From a virus (taxonomy: Duplodnaviria > Caudoviricetes): DNA of 31,869 nt. Of the stretch, positions 7,222 through 17,244 are shown piece after piece. The stretch is from positions 1 to 31,869 of the IMG/VR virus record IMGVR_UViG_3300040971_000087; one strand, written 5' to 3'. Position numbers and translations under genes: made by a program. Numbering within the stretch: position 1 is the stretch's first letter; each line of letters begins with the position of its first letter. The notes beneath the pieces are model-generated. The model saw only the letters and a list, made by a program, of their open reading frames with translations, searched no databases and was not told where the DNA came from.

Positions 7222-7250
7222 ATTATATCAGAAGTTAACACGATTGTCAA
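7222..7250 (-). promoter_or_regulatory. Consensus sigmaA promoter with extended -10 and UP element
   Basis: TTGACA-17 nt-TATAAT preceded by TGA; A/T tracts upstream at 7255-7285. Confidence 0.9.
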
Positions 7251-10064: not shown

Positions 10065-10093
10065 ATTATATCATACTTCTGATGAAATGTAAA
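10065..10093 (-). promoter_or_regulatory. sigmaA promoter for the recombination genes
   Basis: TTTACA-17-TATAAT with TG extended -10. Confidence 0.8.
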
Positions 10094-10408: not shown

Positions 10409-12910
10409 CTATCTAGGTGTAAACGGGAACTCTTCTCCAGGTAGCCAGTCTTTGGCTGAACCCCAATGAGTTCCTATCTTGCAATCCCCAGTGATTGGGA
10501 TCGTCGGAGTATATCCAAACCACTTAAGAAGTCTGGAAGGGTCATCAAATACTTCCTTTAATTTGTGAGGCCAGTAGTCCAATTTATCATTTCTAATCAT
10601 GTAGTACTGAGCGTCATGTACTGAACCCACAGGTTTAATAGTTTCCAACTTAGGATCTTCAGGTAAAATGTGGTCTAATACCATTTCAATAAAGCCAGCT
10701 AATACATAGTCACTACCAAATCCTTGAACAGGTGAGTTAATTGCTTCACGTTCAGCAGCTGATCTCATACCATCATCACTTGAGTAAATATTAGGTAGGT
10801 GTCTTTCTCTTCCTATTGGTGAAACCACGTAGCCCATCATCTTAACTAACTTCTTCATCTTAAAATGCCAAGGACCTAAATCAGGATATAGTTCAAAGAA
10901 TCTCCTACGATAATCCTTAGCTTCTTTGTCAGTTAAGCGTACTCCATATTTTTCCCAGGCATATTGCTTGAATTTCTTCCAGCCCATGCCATATACAAAT
11001 CCAAAATTGACTGCCTTAGCTTTCTTTCTCTCATCATATGTGACATCTTCAGGTAGCTTCCCAGTTATTGCTGCAGCAGTCGCAGTATGAATGTCTCCTC
11101 CCATTGCAAATATTGAGAGCATCTTTCTCTCGTTTGCCACAATAGCAACAACCCTTAGCTCAATCTGAGAACCGTCAATTTCAAAGAACGACCATCCTGG
11201 AGGAGCACCTATCAATCCTCGGATAAAATCATCACGAGGTACCTGATGAGCTCCATCCTCACCTGAGAGTCTGCCTGTAACTGTCCCATGTAACTTAAAG
11301 GTAGGGTGTATCATATTGTTATCATCTACTTTGTGGGACCAAGGTTCAAGGTAGGTAGATCTGTATTTAGCCCACTTCCTATATTCCATGATACCATCCA
11401 TCATTGGGTGGTCAAACTCAGCATGAAGTTCCAGTAACACAGCCTCAGCAGTACTTGGTTTTCCTGAGTCAGTCAATTGTATAATAGGGAAACCCAACCC
11501 ATCATCCTGAAATAGTAACTTACCAAGTTGTTGAGGACTATTCCAATTGAACCCAGTTTTAAGTTGCTTTTTGTTGAGGTTGTTCTCAGCCCATCCTTTA
11601 GGTATTAAGCTATTAAGAAGCTTCAATGACTTCTCAATCTCCTCATCACATTGTATCTTAGCCTGGGCTATTTTGTCTGGGTCAATCCACATACCTTCTT
11701 CTTCAATCAGGGTAAATACTTTACTACCTTTCTCAAGTAAATGCTTATAAATCCTAGCTAATCTTGGTTTTTGAAGTAGCATGTCTTTGTATACAGGATA
11801 GTTATGCCAAGAATATAATGCGTCCAAAGCATTGTACTTCATCATCCTCCCTAAATCCATCCTGTGGAATTGTTTTACTACCTCAATAATGTCGTCATAT
11901 ACAGGGTCATACTTCTTAGGCCAATGAATATCCTTATCGTAATCAGGAGCATCAAAATTTACTGCAGCCTGATACTTTAGCCCATGTGGTATGTTCTCAT
12001 CTAAAATATAAGACATTAACATATTATCTGGCCCAAAGTTTACATTGGTATTATATTTCTTTCTCATCCATTTAACATCATACTTCCAGTTATTACCAAC
12101 CCACTTAATGGATTCAAAGAATGGTTTAATTAGGTTAACTATTGTTTGGGTCTGGTTTCTCCACGGAGACTGAGGATGAACCATAGGAATTGTCCACAGG
12201 TTGTATCCATCGACTGTCAAAGCCATTGTCATGACCGAGGTCTCAGGTCTCCAGTAATCAAAGGTAGTAGTCTCTAAATCTAATGCACCGTATATATTTT
12301 TATCATTTTTAACAGCGTCTTTAAGGTGTCTAATCATTCCTGTAAGGACTTCTTTCGTTGTCACGTAATGTATAACATATTGCAATTGATGAGATTTTCT
12401 TCCAGCCATGAAATTAGCTACCTTTTGCATGTCTGTATTGAACTCATGAGTGTATTTAGGGATTCGTAGTACTGACCCTGGACTGTAGGTAGCTATGACT
12501 GGGATTCCACCTTTACTTACTAACTCTTTTCCTCGGTAACTACTTATACCTGATCTACCTGTAACTGAGTTTAGTGCAATATTACCAAAGGTGAAGATCA
12601 GATCAGGTTTAACTGTCCTGATCTCCTCCTCTAAATATGGAGCACAATTCTTGATATGGTCTTTAGTTAGTTTCTCAGTTACCCTACATTTCACAGCAAA
12701 AGTGATGTAGTAATCTTTTATCCCATACTGTGCTAATGTGTTCTTTAGAAAAGACCCGCTGTTGTCACCTGCTATAACTCCCTCGAAGTCGTCAGTCAAT
12801 GATGGCATCTCAAGTACAATCATCAACCTGGCTTTTTTATACTCAGGAGTCAGTTGTATACTTTGGGGTTGTTCTACTAAATTACAGAGGTTGCAACTGT
12901 CTAACATCAA
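10409..12910 (-). CDS. polA: Family A DNA polymerase with N-terminal family-4 UDG-like domain and 3'-5' exonuclease
   Basis: UDG-like: CxxC, AVKCR, CAPYLEEEI..VKP..I..FG..A. Exo: DLET, KYD, YNALD. Pol: TVTGRLS, motif A DGSQIELR, motif B RKKAKAVNFGFVYG, motif C VHDA. Confidence 0.95.
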   Translation of the reverse strand: MMLDSCNLCNLVEQPQSIQLTPEYKKARLMIVLEMPSLTDDFEGVIAGDNSGSFLKNTLAQYGIKDYYITFAVKCRVTEKLTKDHIKNCAPYLEEEIRTVKPDLIFTFGNIALNSVTGRSGISSYRGKELVSKGGIPVIATYSPGSVLRIPKYTHEFNTDMQKVANFMAGRKSHQLQYVIHYVTTKEVLTGMIRHLKDAVKNDKNIYGALDLETTTFDYWRPETSVMTMALTVDGYNLWTIPMVHPQSPWRNQTQTIVNLIKPFFESIKWVGNNWKYDVKWMRKKYNTNVNFGPDNMLMSYILDENIPHGLKYQAAVNFDAPDYDKDIHWPKKYDPVYDDIIEVVKQFHRMDLGRMMKYNALDALYSWHNYPVYKDMLLQKPRLARIYKHLLEKGSKVFTLIEEEGMWIDPDKIAQAKIQCDEEIEKSLKLLNSLIPKGWAENNLNKKQLKTGFNWNSPQQLGKLLFQDDGLGFPIIQLTDSGKPSTAEAVLLELHAEFDHPMMDGIMEYRKWAKYRSTYLEPWSHKVDDNNMIHPTFKLHGTVTGRLSGEDGAHQVPRDDFIRGLIGAPPGWSFFEIDGSQIELRVVAIVANERKMLSIFAMGGDIHTATAAAITGKLPEDVTYDERKKAKAVNFGFVYGMGWKKFKQYAWEKYGVRLTDKEAKDYRRRFFELYPDLGPWHFKMKKLVKMMGYVVSPIGRERHLPNIYSSDDGMRSAAEREAINSPVQGFGSDYVLAGFIEMVLDHILPEDPKLETIKPVGSVHDAQYYMIRNDKLDYWPHKLKEVFDDPSRLLKWFGYTPTIPITGDCKIGTHWGSAKDWLPGEEFPFTPR

Positions 12911-13319
12911 TACCAGCTCCTATCAGTTTGTCTACTCTTGCTTTCACGTCATTCCCATAGACCTTGCCATAATAAAGTATTTTTGGTCTATGAATCGAGC
13001 CACAGATATATCGGATACAGTTATCACAAGGTAGGTGAGTAACATACATTATAGTGTCAGGATATCTGTAGTGCGAGATTTTAGATAGAAACTCTAGTGC
13101 ATTGATCTCAGCGTGTATAGTTCTTACACAATGACCATCCACCATAGAGTGACCAATATCATCACAATGAGGCATCCCATGTGGTGAGCCATTGTATCCT
13201 GCAGAAATTAATCTTCCACCTACAGTTATAATAGCTCCTACCTGAGCTCTGTCACAAGTGGATCTCTTTGCATAAAGTTTTGCTAACTCCATGTAGAAGT
13301 GATCTCTATCCATTCTCAT
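12882..13319 (-). CDS. dCMP deaminase
   Basis: RSTC.RAQVGA, GYNG, HAE, PCxxC zinc motifs. Confidence 0.93.
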   Translation of the reverse strand: MRMDRDHFYMELAKLYAKRSTCDRAQVGAIITVGGRLISAGYNGSPHGMPHCDDIGHSMVDGHCVRTIHAEINALEFLSKISHYRYPDTIMYVTHLPCDNCIRYICGSIHRPKILYYGKVYGNDVKARVDKLIGAGIDVRQLQPL

Positions 13320-14274
13320 GCTCTAACTCCTCTCTTATTCTTACAAATCGAGGGTGTCTTAGATTTCCATCAGATGTCCTCTCCATGAACTCCACTTCCA
13401 TGACTCTTCCAATATACTCCTCTTTTATTCCGTGGTTACCGTCACTTAACATCTCCCTGAGCTCATCAGTAATGCCTGAGCAGGAACCGACATTATCACC
13501 ATCCCTAAACTCAATTGAACCGAACCATCCTTTAACCCAAGGTTTAGTGTGCCTGGATATGTCTATGGTTCTAGTTACTGGGTCAGTATAGTGCTTATCA
13601 GGTAAGATTGAGCCAGTAATGATAACATCTACAGTATCTTTTTTCTTATACTTATACCAAGTGTGAGCAGGTTTAGCTGCTCTTTTGTGAGTACCAAACT
13701 GATAGAGAGATGCTTTATTTTTGAATACCATTCCCTCCATTCCTTTGGCTAACAGAGCATATAATAATGCTTCTTTTCTTGGTCCTGTCTCCACGTGAGG
13801 AACATACTCAACAGGGATGAATGGAAGATGATCTACTAATTTTCTGAGCATATCATCTCTCCTTATATTAGTCAGGTTGTATATTGCCTCATGTCGATAG
13901 AACAGAAAATCAAAAACTCTAAATACAATTGTATCAGGAACTGGAACCATCGAGCGATAGTTCAATATTCCAGCTACCTCAGCAGAAGTCATACTAGGTT
14001 CATATAACTCTCCATCTAAGACAGTTCCAGCCAAAGATCTAATTTTGTATTTAGTAAAGTGGGGGAGCCTATGGGAGATGTCAATTGGAATAGTTGGGTC
14101 AGCTTTGGTAGATCCTCTAGTAGTTATAACCATCTCACCGTCCTCGAGAAACTGTAATATTCCCCTAACCCCATCAATCTTCTCCTGACCAAAGTAAGAG
14201 TCATCTTCGATTAGTTTCTCTAGGGCTTCTTCACTTTCAACCTTTTTACAGCCCATAGGCCAAATGATTCTCAT
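13306..14274 (-). CDS. ATP-dependent DNA ligase
   Basis: EKIDGVR (motif I), LDGE, VFD, EGMVFK, KYK, LRHPRF. Confidence 0.93.
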   Translation of the reverse strand: MRIIWPMGCKKVESEEALEKLIEDDSYFGQEKIDGVRGILQFLEDGEMVITTRGSTKADPTIPIDISHRLPHFTKYKIRSLAGTVLDGELYEPSMTSAEVAGILNYRSMVPVPDTIVFRVFDFLFYRHEAIYNLTNIRRDDMLRKLVDHLPFIPVEYVPHVETGPRKEALLYALLAKGMEGMVFKNKASLYQFGTHKRAAKPAHTWYKYKKKDTVDVIITGSILPDKHYTDPVTRTIDISRHTKPWVKGWFGSIEFRDGDNVGSCSGITDELREMLSDGNHGIKEEYIGRVMEVEFMERTSDGNLRHPRFVRIREELEHENG

Positions 14275-14954
14275 TAAAATACTCCTTCCACATCCTTCTG
14301 ATAAATATGAAGACTGTTGATAGAATGGGTAAAATACCCAGGTTTATAGCCAGTCACATTAGCTATATATTGCATTAACTTCACACCCAAGTAAACATCA
14401 TTTTGGAAGTGTGTTACAAAGTCGCAAGATCTCATCATATAGGTAACATTAAGTTGTCCACCTCTAAGTTGAAACAGATAACCCAGTGAGCAAGGTACTC
14501 TGTATCGAGAACCCATTCTCTCATTATCAATATTAGGATCCCAGATTGAGAGATACAGTTGACGACTGTCAGGATACTGATGAAGCTCAGTGATTATCCT
14601 GTGGAGTTGACTTCCTATTCTTTCTGAGTAAGTGTATGCAAATTTCCCATCATGGAGAAACTCTAACCATACATCAGCTCTGGAGTGATAAGCCTCACCT
14701 GGATTAGTTCCAAACCCTTGAATCCTCTCAGAGAACTCAATGTCAGCCCAAGGTTGTGTAGGATTTAATTGATGTAATGAACCCACAGGATCTGTGACAG
14801 TGTAGGAATAGTTTTGTAACTCCAGTGTGGCATACTCAGGGTCATCTCCAATGTACTTATCTTGCATTGACTGAGTATGAACACTAACTCCCATCTCAGC
14901 TAGATCTCTTTTGATCTCATTAAGGGCTTCATCAAAATTAGTAAAAATTCTCAT
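14274..14954 (-). CDS. Thymidylate-synthase-fold enzyme with dCMP-type signature (putative dCMP hydroxymethylase/methylase)
   Basis: YTYSER, DSRQ..LSIWDP, catalytic PC, MRSCDFVTHFQND (Asp at the position of E. coli ThyA N177 / T4 gp42 D179), SLHIY. Confidence 0.85.
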   Translation of the reverse strand: MRIFTNFDEALNEIKRDLAEMGVSVHTQSMQDKYIGDDPEYATLELQNYSYTVTDPVGSLHQLNPTQPWADIEFSERIQGFGTNPGEAYHSRADVWLEFLHDGKFAYTYSERIGSQLHRIITELHQYPDSRQLYLSIWDPNIDNERMGSRYRVPCSLGYLFQLRGGQLNVTYMMRSCDFVTHFQNDVYLGVKLMQYIANVTGYKPGYFTHSINSLHIYQKDVEGVF

Positions 14955-15169
14955 TTAGCTGTCCCCTTTCTTATAAAGTGATAAATAATATCCACTTCTT
15001 CAGTGACCAGGTTACCACCTCTGATAACTCTCTTCGGTGAAGTAGTTATTTGCCAAGGAGTGTAACCCAGCTCGATAAACTTATTAACATCCTCTGCCGA
15101 CAAATTGTAGCCTCTGGTGTAGATAGGTAGTGGTTGCTCTTCAGGTGTATCAATCTTCTTTTCACTCAT
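14951..15169 (-). CDS. Small hypothetical protein inside the nucleotide-modification cluster
   Basis: ATG 15169 with GGAG RBS; overlaps both neighbours. Confidence 0.65.
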   Translation of the reverse strand: MSEKKIDTPEEQPLPIYTRGYNLSAEDVNKFIELGYTPWQITTSPKRVIRGGNLVTEEVDIIYHFIRKGTAK

Positions 15170-16040
15170 CTCCGTCTCCTCCAAACATTTCTAACTCATC
15201 ACAAGATAACTTATCCATGATGTGGTTGATATCGTACCCAGGTAAAGTAAGTGACTCTGTGGGTACGTAGTGTCCTTCCCTTTCTCCAATCAATACCTCA
15301 TAAGCTTTCATAACTCTTTCCTGAGTTCTAAAATTGGAGTAGTTCTTGTCAACAAATACCTTCTTATACCTCTTAATAGTTGCAACTTGCCAGTGAGGTA
15401 GTCCTACAGTTTCAGCTTCAATAAGTTCTCCCTCTTCATTAAAGAAGTCTTTGAGCCATTGCTCATTACCTTCAAAAGCTAAGAAGAATGGTGTTCCTGT
15501 AATAGACTGATATGAACTTGTCATATTCCACCTTAAGGTCATATAGTCAGGATTGAAGCCAACCTTGTCACCTATCTCTCTCAGCAATACATAGATAAAG
15601 ATTAAGTCAGCAAACCATCTTGTGGTTACTTCACTTGCTCTGGTATTGACTACTGCATGCCATTGTCCTTGATGAAAGCCAACTGATAGATTTAGTAAAC
15701 AGGCTCCAGAAGCATTATCTCGAGCATTAAATTGCATTGCAATATCAGGAACATACTTATTCTTGTGCTTTTTCTGACTATTGTAATGATTGAGTCTTTG
15801 AACCATCTTACCTAGTTCCACAGGATTGAGATACAATCTGATAAGCATTCTCCACTTGGCAGGAGCATAATTCATATCATGTAAATGAAGGTCACAAGCA
15901 GCTGACTCCATGAATATTGAGTCTTGAAATGAGTGAGCTGTTACTCCTCCTCTTATATACTGAAATGCATTATTCCAAAACAGGTAGTGATTGAACTTAA
16001 TATAGGCATCCCTCATGTCTTTCGCTTTTAAATTAAACAT
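15162..16040 (-). CDS. Divergent second thymidylate-synthase-fold protein
   Basis: N-terminus resembles TS/hydroxymethylase starts. GACLLNLSV...VVNTRASEVTTRWFAD parallels PC...YMMRSCD.......D in order and spacing. Confidence 0.55.
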   Translation of the reverse strand: MFNLKAKDMRDAYIKFNHYLFWNNAFQYIRGGVTAHSFQDSIFMESAACDLHLHDMNYAPAKWRMLIRLYLNPVELGKMVQRLNHYNSQKKHKNKYVPDIAMQFNARDNASGACLLNLSVGFHQGQWHAVVNTRASEVTTRWFADLIFIYVLLREIGDKVGFNPDYMTLRWNMTSSYQSITGTPFFLAFEGNEQWLKDFFNEEGELIEAETVGLPHWQVATIKRYKKVFVDKNYSNFRTQERVMKAYEVLIGEREGHYVPTESLTLPGYDINHIMDKLSCDELEMFGGDGDE

Positions 16041-16041
16041 A

Positions 16042-16662
16042 TTAGTACCCCGATCTTTGTCTGAATTGATTGACCTGATTCTTCCTCATATACATGTGGA
16101 ATAGTGACTCTGCTGTGAACCCTCCAGCCTTACATAAGTCAATGAAAGACTGAAACTCGATTTCGGTAAGTTTCTGAAACTTATTAATGTCAGTAAGCAT
16201 GTGAGTTGTCTTCCAAGGCTTATTCTTAAGTGTATTACATGCTAATCCAGCAGCAACTAAATAATCAGTAACTGCCGATTTGATAGACTCAGCAGGATTG
16301 CCCATTGAGTTGTCAAAATACCATTGCAATGGCTTGTTTGGGTTGTAACCTGCAATAAGCATTTTCTCAACTACAAAGTGAAATGCATCAGCTAGCTCCT
16401 CCTCAAAATGGAGAATATCCGTCTTAAGAATAGCTTCCATAGCCTCAGCAACTTCCTCCATAGCTCTCCATGTCATATCCTTAAGTCTTGCTTGAACGAA
16501 TCTGTCGTGGACATCACCTGGTATTCTATCTGACTGAAGTAGTCCATTCTGTTTCTCGATGTGTAGATACTTCTCAGCCAACTCATGCTGATACTGGAAG
16601 ATGTCCTCTAATGCATGTTTCTCATCATACGGTATCTTACTCTTAAAATCATTTACGTTCAT
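16042..16662 (-). CDS. All-alpha (MazG/dimeric dUTPase family) dNTP pyrophosphatase, possibly dCTPase/dUTPase
   Basis: EEVAEA..A, EELADAFHF, KPWK, C-terminal Y.RKN.VN.FRQ.SGY. Confidence 0.85.
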   Translation of the reverse strand: MNVNDFKSKIPYDEKHALEDIFQYQHELAEKYLHIEKQNGLLQSDRIPGDVHDRFVQARLKDMTWRAMEEVAEAMEAILKTDILHFEEELADAFHFVVEKMLIAGYNPNKPLQWYFDNSMGNPAESIKSAVTDYLVAAGLACNTLKNKPWKTTHMLTDINKFQKLTEIEFQSFIDLCKAGGFTAESLFHMYMRKNQVNQFRQRSGY

Positions 16663-17179
16663 TCTTCAATACCTCCTGGGCTTTTAGGTACATTTTAACC
16701 TCAAAGTCAATCTGCTCATAGTATGGGTCTTCTTCAATCGAGTATCCTACGGTTAACTCCCTAAATGGGAATCCTTGAATTAACCTAAAATACCTGATCT
16801 GTATTTCAGATACCTGAGAGATATCTAAATACTGTTTTCTTACATTATAGGTGGACTCAATGTCACCTGGCATTCTGTGACAAAGGATGATAAGTGGTTT
16901 CTGCTCAGCGATTAATCCATCTACAACCTTGATCTGATGTTTACTGATACCAATTTTACTTCTTACCACAGGACCATAAACAAGTTCGTCTAGGTAGAAT
17001 CTGTCGGCAATGAGTTCATAGTCTCGATCCAATACTCCTACTACCCATCGATACCAATCATCATAGTCTTTAGGCGGGAGTTCATGATACCTATCAATGA
17101 TAGGAATATGAAACTTGTTGCTTAGGTGGGTAGCTAGTGTAGTCTTACCACTATTGTCCACCCCAGTAATTATAATCAT
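16649..17179 (-). CDS. Deoxynucleoside monophosphate (thymidylate-kinase-like) kinase
   Basis: IIITGVDNSGKTT P-loop, IADRF...ELVYG. Confidence 0.85.
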   Translation of the reverse strand: MIIITGVDNSGKTTLATHLSNKFHIPIIDRYHELPPKDYDDWYRWVVGVLDRDYELIADRFYLDELVYGPVVRSKIGISKHQIKVVDGLIAEQKPLIILCHRMPGDIESTYNVRKQYLDISQVSEIQIRYFRLIQGFPFRELTVGYSIEEDPYYEQIDFEVKMYLKAQEVLKNERK

Positions 17180-17214
17180 TTTGGCCTCCTTACATTTTTT
17201 TATTGTATATATTT

Positions 17215-17244
17215 ATTATATCATAAAGTTGAATGACTTGTCAA
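17215..17244 (-). promoter_or_regulatory. sigmaA promoter heading the kinase-to-polymerase operon
   Basis: TTGACA-18-TATAAT with TG extension; AAGGAGG RBS downstream. Confidence 0.8.

Follow-up and report, generated by a model that had tools for sequence, protein, structure and literature searches.

The stretch of DNA analysed here, referred to below as the window, comprises positions 1 to 31,869 of the IMG/VR virus record IMGVR_UViG_3300040971_000087 (Duplodnaviria; Caudoviricetes), a linear virus fragment that is about 70% complete. It carries a gene cassette built around two proteins of the thymidylate synthase (TS) fold, here termed TS1 and TS2. All named cassette genes lie on the minus strand and, according to the gene calls for the window, neighbours overlap or abut. 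Starting from the promoter, the order is kinase, all-alpha deoxynucleoside triphosphate pyrophosphatase (dNTPase), TS2, an open reading frame (ORF) of 77 amino acids (aa), TS1, ligase, deoxycytidine monophosphate (dCMP) deaminase and a polymerase in which uracil-DNA glycosylase (UDG), exonuclease and PolA domains are joined. The operon is headed by a perfect predicted promoter of the sigma-70/sigma-A type with an extended -10 element (17215..17244, minus strand), which reads TTGACA-18-TG-TATAAT from 17244 to 17215, agrees with the consensus at 12/12 positions plus the TG and is one of two perfect sites among the 49 pattern matches between 6500 and 22000, a region for which shuffled sequence yields 47.6 matches in all. 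A preliminary description of this DNA had placed kinase, dNTPase, two TS-fold genes, ligase, deaminase and PolA behind one promoter, and all of these were indeed found; the interval given there, 12882..17244, holds the genes from kinase through deaminase and leaves PolA (10409-12910) almost wholly outside. The 77-aa ORF (14951..15184, minus strand, from the gene call), which that description did not list, occurs only in a few close relatives. Two further near-perfect predicted promoters with an extended -10 element are present on the minus strand at 7222-7250 and 10065-10093 (12/12 and 11/12, respectively).

TS1 (14274..14954, minus strand; 226 aa) is a TS homologue of the dCMP type that matches PF00303 (2e-18). 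It contains the motif RSCDFVTHFQND, whose final Asp, D186 (codon 14399-14397), aligns with Asn177 of Escherichia coli ThyA and Asp179 of T4 gp42, just as had been claimed. TS1 was compared with E. coli ThyA, T4 gp42 and the Xp12, Mosigvirus, Pootjesviridae and MW2 enzymes; residue numbers given for it below are ThyA positions, R143, C146, D169 and D177 corresponding to R152, C155, D178 and D186 in its own numbering. At the positions compared it has E58, W80, Y94, R126, Q127, R143, C146, S147, D169, H173, D177, H207 and Y209, and the ThyA catalytic set of Cys146, Arg166, Asp169, His207 and Tyr209 is complete. Its tail extends 10 residues past His207, as opposed to 57 in ThyA and 63 in Xp12. R143, C146, D169, H173 and D177 are present in 128/128 aligned homologues (the best 120 of 595 hits plus 8 loci, all of them relatives with at least 40% identity), and S/T147 is equally invariant in this set. 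Even the TS1 proteins of the phages Muddy, Gibbous and Serbin, at about 29% identity, retain R143, C146, D169, H173 and D177.

Asp177 is considered to specify dCMP as the substrate, an acidic residue at 143 the formation of a hydroxymethyl or hydroxyl product, and Asn169 a 5-hydroxy product (PMC13326640). Asp177 together with S/T147 also marks the dCMP enzymes in experimentally enriched contigs with modified cytosine (PMC8670742). Judged by its aligned residues, TS1 satisfies the D177 rule and fails both the acidic-143 and the N169 rule. Asn177, the mark of ThyA as a deoxyuridine monophosphate (dUMP) methylase, is replaced by Asp throughout the 128 homologues, and Leu143, Gly173 and the long folate-closing C-terminal tail of ThyA have no counterpart in TS1. 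The T4 gp42 signature consists of Asp or Glu three residues before the Cys and Ser or Thr two before Tyr96; TS1 has Arg and Tyr at these places, and in the T4 hydroxymethylase even the exchange D145N abolishes activity (PMC6400193). The signature of 5-hydroxy-dCMP synthases, D169N plus L143E (PMC13326640), is likewise missing, the homologues having D178 and R152 (TS1 numbering) in 128/128 cases. TS1 does not carry the dUMP hydroxymethylase combination of Asn177 and an acidic 143 either, as judged against the MW2 enzyme as annotated. With the Xp12 type it shares Asp177 and an adjacent deaminase; it has neither the long tail nor Asn143/Gly173, and a phage dihydrofolate reductase (DHFR) was found in none of five complete relatives. 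Alignment with ThyA, T4 gp42 and Xp12, which the preliminary description had proposed, confirmed Asp177 and gave a full match to none of these three. Because Arg143, His173 and a tail of 10 residues stand beside Asp177, TS1 is by its residues outside the published signatures of ThyA, of the T4 enzyme for 5-hydroxymethylcytosine (5hmC), of the RB69/HY126 enzymes for 5-hydroxycytosine (5hoC) and of the Xp12 enzyme for 5-methylcytosine (5mC).

The predicted structure of TS1 has a mean predicted local distance difference test score (pLDDT) of 95, and its nearest solved structures, 9IQC/9IQU, MilA and ThyA, lie within about 3 Z units of each other (Z 23.2-20.6). Two TS1 subtypes share R143/H173/D177, one represented by the window and the Clostridium perfringens phage CPD4 (E58, W80, T172), the other by Muddy, the Gordonia phages and Serbin (H58, no W80, R172). 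When 26 TS proteins were placed in a tree, the 18 TS1 sequences from cassettes fell on one side of a branch whose support (66/32) neither establishes nor refutes monophyly of TS1 or a sister relationship to the hydroxylases. Locus L008 (14704-15516) holds one TS1 of each subtype.

TS2 (15162..16040, minus strand; 292 aa) was recognized as a divergent TS-fold protein by profile comparison and structure modelling. No Pfam family matched TS2, and PF00303 had no match in any of 149/149 aligned members, but hhalign relates it to TS1 (92.4%, E 5e-7), and its AlphaFold2 model (pLDDT 94) retrieved 9IQC (Z 15.7, root-mean-square deviation 2.8, 179 residues aligned), MilA (12.8), ThyA (11.5) and the T4 enzyme (10.7) ahead of the next fold (5.3). 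In the ESM Atlas TS2 falls among unnamed viral clusters and TS clusters. Y70, C114, R134 and D145 of TS2 take the positions of ThyA Y94, C146, R166 and N177, and in 149 diverse members C114 and Y70 are each conserved in 148, R/K134 and D145 in all. The same members keep no clear equivalents of R126/R127 or H207/Y209, and the protein carries a helical C-terminal extension; the equivalences for Y94, 126/127 and 207/209 were assigned by spacing and secondary structure rather than by superposition. TS2 thus appears to have kept the residues required for binding and activating a cytosine nucleotide. With counterparts of the Cys, Arg, Tyr and Asp all in place in the modelled fold, there is no clear sign that TS2 is inactive, and an enzyme, a partner subunit or both are conceivable. 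The conservation of these residues and the presence of the gene in the core described below speak against the view, implied earlier, of the second TS-fold gene as a mere relic. Two genes of the TS2 family per locus are found in L039, L041, L056, L079 and L088.

The other cassette proteins belong to families of nucleotide and DNA metabolism. The P-loop nucleoside monophosphate kinase (16649..17179, minus strand) matches the thymidylate kinase family phrog_761 (E 6.5e-10), has YorR of the Bacillus subtilis phage SP-beta as its best PDB match (E 9e-5) and is predicted to phosphorylate modified dCMP. The all-alpha (dimeric dUTPase/MazG-like) dNTPase (16042..16662, minus strand; Pfam dUTPase_2, PF08761, 2e-12) is predicted to act as a deoxycytidine triphosphatase/deoxyuridine triphosphatase (dCTPase/dUTPase). 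The ComEB-like dCMP deaminase family protein (12882..13319, minus strand; PF00383) has 2HVV as its best PDB match (E 2.5e-28), is 32% identical to the Xp12 deaminase over 99 aa and likely feeds the thymidine pool; selectivity of such deaminases for 5mC is polyphyletic (bioRxiv 10.1101/2024.12.05.627091). Domain matches further identify an ATP-dependent DNA ligase (13306..14274, minus strand), by its distribution a lineage-specific insertion, and PolA (10409..12910, minus strand), in which an N-terminal family-4 UDG-like domain precedes a 3'-5' exonuclease and a family A polymerase. In the UDG domain of the window PolA the motif Glu is kept and the motif Asn and His are replaced; of 49 cassette PolAs, roughly half retain the motif His.

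Searches with TS1 patterns gave 95 locus hits and, after same-contig repeats had been dropped, 85 loci, some of them near-identical. TS1 is present in 85/85 by construction, and TS2, detected by hidden Markov model in these TS1-anchored loci, in 77; three of the eight loci without TS2 end at that gene. The pyrophosphatase occurs in 80 and the kinase in 74, and 68 loci hold all four genes. Deaminase and PolA are found in 53 loci each, the DNA polymerase III alpha subunit DnaE in 14 and the ligase in 10, so that ligase and family A polymerase, which had been counted as parts of the cassette, stand outside its core. ThyX (8 loci), ThyA with Asn177 (3) and trimeric dUTPase (5) are occasional neighbours. 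A canonical thymidine monophosphate (dTMP) synthase accordingly lies beside the cassette in 11/85 loci, where TS1 and TS2 are both kept; nine of these 11, probably one clade, have no deaminase in the fetched region. Because dTMP synthase (11) and trimeric dUTPase (5) co-occur with them, TS1 and the all-alpha enzyme would be dispensable for the respective jobs in those loci, which argues that TS1 has a task other than dTMP synthesis there.

The order kinase-pyrophosphatase-TS2-TS1 recurs in cultured phages, namely CPD4, which is the closest cultured type and has its deaminase elsewhere in the genome, Gordonia cluster CT, Mycobacterium phage Muddy and Serratia phage Serbin. A TS2 of the Muddy type is present in 85 cultured records, and ten C. 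perfringens phage records have a TS1 of the window type. The core adjoins DnaE instead of PolA in L037, L038, L040, L043, L050, L054, L056, L058-L060, L075, L088, L093 and L094; in five other loci a gene of about 610 aa and no assigned family stands with a trimeric dUTPase beside the four-gene core. The gut phage DP SC_6_H4_2017 (L017:8154-9774) carries an IspD-like cytidylyltransferase and LicD between TS1 and PolA, a pair that possibly forms a further modification module. CPD4 (L024 and L016) shows extreme CpG depletion (rho 0.14), and its GenBank product names are displaced by one gene across much of the record.

Masked cytosine should leave C-rich restriction sites unpurged, and site counts were compared with the expectation from a maximal-order Markov model. 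Which enzymes cut modified DNA is general knowledge on which the reading of these counts draws. Six of the eight cultured cassette actinophages keep 6-mer palindromes with three cytosines per strand at observed/expected (O/E) ratios of 0.96-1.01 (GTE2 0.96, Cozz 0.98, Vine 0.98, Muddy 0.99, Button 1.00, JacoRen57 1.01), the reference phages Xp12 and D29 reaching 0.92 and 0.39. Sites with one cytosine are still avoided in these six (0.51-0.77), as they are in Xp12 (0.56), and those that Muddy, GTE2 and Cozz still avoid (ATCGAT; TGATCA in two of the three) coincide in part with the sites that Xp12 avoids. Xp12-like DNA is cut mainly at sites composed of A and T only (PMC9206674). Among loci with a GC content of at least 0.5, near-duplicates and five loci without TS2 having been removed, the median for three-C palindromes is 0.81 in 14 cassette loci and 0.51 in 45 controls (p 1e-6) and that for one-C sites 0.75 and 0.65 (p 0.02), p values that are overstated, since most controls are D29-like phages related to one another rather than independent samples. 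A PolA-anchored search for close cassette-free controls provided 6 loci. CPD4 keeps GATC (0.94) and GGCC (1.02), both of which are lost in phiCP39-O, CPS2 and susfortuna (0-0.25); it is devoid of GAATTC, CAATTG, TGATCA and others. The complete relative G004 (60.7 kb; L010, L108-L111) has nearly lost the C-free sites AATT (0.00) and TTAA (0.03).

Taken together, we consider it probable (about 0.7) that the cassette brings about a pre-replicative C5 modification of dCMP that replaces deoxycytidine in the phage DNA. The analysis itself establishes which genes are present and in what order, their folds and residue signatures, how often they co-occur and how many sites there are; all activities, the identity of the product, what TS2 does and how far cytosine is substituted are inferred from this. 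In the pathway that we envisage, the all-alpha pyrophosphatase would clear deoxycytidine triphosphate (dCTP), and deoxyuridine triphosphate, to the monophosphates. Cys155 of TS1 would attack C6 of dCMP, with Asp186 selecting cytosine, whereupon C5 would be modified, TS2 serving as a required partner or catalysing a second step. The kinase and a host nucleoside diphosphate kinase would lift the product to the triphosphate, and the deaminase could produce a precursor of thymidine by acting on dCMP or on the methylated nucleotide, the latter as happens in Xp12. The phage polymerase would then insert the modified dCTP, most likely 5-methyl-dCTP, in place of most or all cytosine, and the modified base would shield the genome from restriction enzymes.

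If cytosine is modified, 5mC is the likeliest single product, at somewhat less than even odds, because TS1 bears neither the hydroxymethyl nor the hydroxyl signature and no enzyme that would modify an acceptor group was seen; the missing acidic 143, the retained D169 and the failure to find a glycosyltransferase favour it over 5hmC, which we regard as unlikely, and over 5hoC, for which the chances are slim. Pfam revealed no glycosyltransferase among the 35 ORFs of the window, in line with the preliminary description, or among 65 further ORFs of two complete relatives, though a divergent enzyme could escape Pfam and 30% of this genome is absent. Given the short tail, the lack of a detected DHFR, R143/H173 and TS2, an undescribed substituent is a real possibility, at lower odds than 5mC. 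In a bolder version, to which we give only a modest chance, TS1 and TS2 would act together, as a heteromer or in two successive steps, to add such a group to C5 of dCMP. The invariant Arg143 and His173 of TS1 would reshape the site where the cofactor binds; TS2, with the Cys, Arg, Tyr and Asp required for activating a cytosine nucleotide but without the parts that close over folate, would exchange or extend the substituent before the DNA is replicated. The C5 modification suggested in the preliminary description is supported by Asp177, by the dTMP synthase in 11/85 loci and by the site signature in most relatives. Its analogy with T4 is not: a 5hmC product of the T4 type is disfavoured because T4 needs Asp145 (ThyA position 143), where all 128 close TS1 homologues have Arg.

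Several observations weigh against replacement of cytosine or against 5mC as its product. Gibbous and Azira possess the whole cassette with intact-looking motifs and nevertheless reach only 0.24 and 0.38 at C-rich 6-mers; at about 0.25 per kb their sites are some 30-fold rarer than in related phages, even within the cassette, so that full replacement, as had been suggested, is not guaranteed. Serbin stands at 0.32 for C-rich 6-mers and at 0.02 for GATC, and GATC falls below 0.3 in 21/73 cassette loci. Among the controls just two loci are low in GC, and neither of them avoids such sites. The signal of the window itself is mixed and depends on the null: the Markov model gives O/E values of 0.96 (one C) and 0.89 (two C), codon shuffling 0.64 (z -3.6) for C-free sites, 1.05 for one C and 0.72 (z -3.0) for two to three C. 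As Muddy and the Gordonia phages have the other TS1 subtype, their counts transfer to the window only indirectly. With regard to 5mC, TS1 has a short tail and R143/H173 where Xp12 has Asn and Gly, the deaminase is nearer to host-type ComEB than to the Xp12 deaminase, and DHFR, which Xp12 encodes, was found in none of 5/5 complete cassette relatives. About 20 classical 6-bp palindromes occur at 0.2-0.3 per kb genome-wide in Gibbous (L026) and Azira (L222) and at 7-10 per kb outside the cassette in four other cluster CT and two cluster AB phages (L117, L223, L224, L225, L025, L226). TS2 of Gibbous and Azira lacks an N-terminal-proximal Asp that is kept in those six relatives.

Could the cassette merely supply thymidylate, via dCMP and 5-methyl-dCMP or from dUMP, to phages whose virion DNA is canonical? 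The Gordonia CT genes are annotated as thymine synthesis (PMC10353413), site avoidance in Gibbous and Azira would be expected in this case, and the absence of the deaminase from nine of the 11 loci with a canonical dTMP synthase ties the deaminase to thymidine supply. We consider this explanation improbable: those 11 loci hold TS1 and TS2 beside the canonical enzyme, Asp177 excludes dUMP by the published rule, and six cultured relatives carry C-rich sites freely. There is also a small chance that substitution is partial or depends on the lineage, or that the modified nucleotide mainly guards the nucleotide pool against nucleotide-depleting defences such as anti-phage dCTP deaminases and masks little of the DNA. 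That Gibbous and Azira have about 30-fold fewer sites per kb than other cluster CT phages of the same gene content fits such a role, as does site avoidance in Serbin; the six genomes with almost no avoidance of three-C sites and the loss of C-free sites from G004 rather fit near-full masking. Finally, a UDG-fused PolA, a deaminase, a dUTPase-like enzyme, a kinase and a ligase make up the kit of phages with modified thymine (PMC13697223), and the product could be 5-hydroxymethyldeoxyuridine or a different thymine derivative of the kind found in SPO1- or SP-15-like phages. This is very improbable, as Asp occupies position 177 in both TS folds, the MW2 enzyme annotated as dUMP hydroxymethylase combines Asn177 with Asp143, the UDG domain of the window is degenerate and it is C-rich, not T-rich, sites that are freed from avoidance.

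Replacement of cytosine by a C5 derivative made before replication has precedents. The Xp12/Pamexvirus pathway to 5mC, with dCMP methylase, 5mC-selective deaminase and DHFR, resembles the cassette in a D177 TS that adjoins deaminase, pyrophosphohydrolase and PolA, in that no glycosyltransferase was found and in a restriction-site pattern matching that of cassette relatives. It differs in its single TS with N143, G173 and a long tail, in DHFR and in an HhH-GPD glycosylase; no TS2-like gene aligned beside its TS. T4 gp56 has the all-alpha dNTPase fold, and the T4 pathway to 5hmC (gp56, gp42 and gp1) shares this enzyme, a D177 TS with a shortened tail, a deoxynucleoside monophosphate kinase and a deaminase with the cassette. 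In contrast to gp42, TS1 has neither Asp143 nor a Ser two residues before Tyr94, the hydroxymethylase signature, and has H173, and the cassette adds a second TS fold and a polymerase of family A or C, with no glucosyltransferase found. The flavin-dependent dCMP hydroxylases RB69 gp48 and HY126 AfhB (9IQC, 9IQU) are the nearest solved structures to TS1 (Z 23.2) and TS2 and also share D177, a very short tail and replacement of Gly173. They differ in N169 and E143, where TS1 keeps D169 along with E58 and W80 and has R143, and in the arabinosyltransferase module that the cassette lacks. A TS with D177 within 3 kb of a dCMP deaminase, accompanied by PolA and a pyrophosphohydrolase, is moreover the neighbourhood of modified-cytosine contigs in the MetaGPA study, where 104/149 deaminases of such contigs lie beside a TS and 5/7 TS tested made 5-methyldeoxycytidine (bioRxiv 10.1101/2024.12.05.627091); the accessible part of that account mentions neither R143/H173 nor a second TS fold, and the present clade may be among the enzymes tested. 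By its genes the cassette would work like the T4 and Xp12 pathways, while by its defining residues it is a member of neither enzyme class.

Outside the cassette, SU10-type portal and adaptor matches in two complete relatives support the earlier designation as a podophage. The 2170-aa protein encoded at 60-6572 matches phrog_7348 weakly at residues 746-1106. As the gene in the equivalent position of the relative G002 (3082 aa) contains an ART-PolyVal domain, it is likely a polyvalent, virion-injected protein. Rfam gave no match. The record possibly derives from a hydrocarbon metagenome sample for which four DNA sequencing runs, and no RNA data, are listed.

While the type of pathway is known from T4 and Xp12, the variant with two TS folds is absent from the literature searched, which covered few subscription journals. 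Within that coverage neither a description of the second TS fold nor a study of nucleosides or restriction in the DNA of Muddy, cluster CT, CPD4-like or Serbin-like phages was found, and the TS motifs of the clade had no match in the text of published supplements, one archive being incomplete and figures not being text-searchable. New in the present work are the tally of co-occurring genes, the distinction of two TS1 subtypes and the restriction-site signature, to which Gibbous and Azira are exceptions.

If our reading holds, a widespread phage group (a TS2 profile search returned 502 clusters, at 50% identity, with E at most 0.001) would possess a modified cytosine that is now annotated as "thymine synthesis", R143/H173/D177 together with TS2 would be a new signature in the TS superfamily, and new nucleotide chemistry or reagents might be at hand. 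The cassette is present in phages already grown in teaching laboratories, among which the contrast offered by Gibbous and Azira is a built-in control. Should the group added to cytosine be an undescribed one, a new DNA base would be present in hundreds of phage lineages, Muddy and Gordonia cluster CT among them, and Gibbous and Azira would represent natural variants that have lost or altered the masking. Modified cytosine would also explain how Muddy, a mycobacteriophage in clinical use for therapy, escapes restriction.

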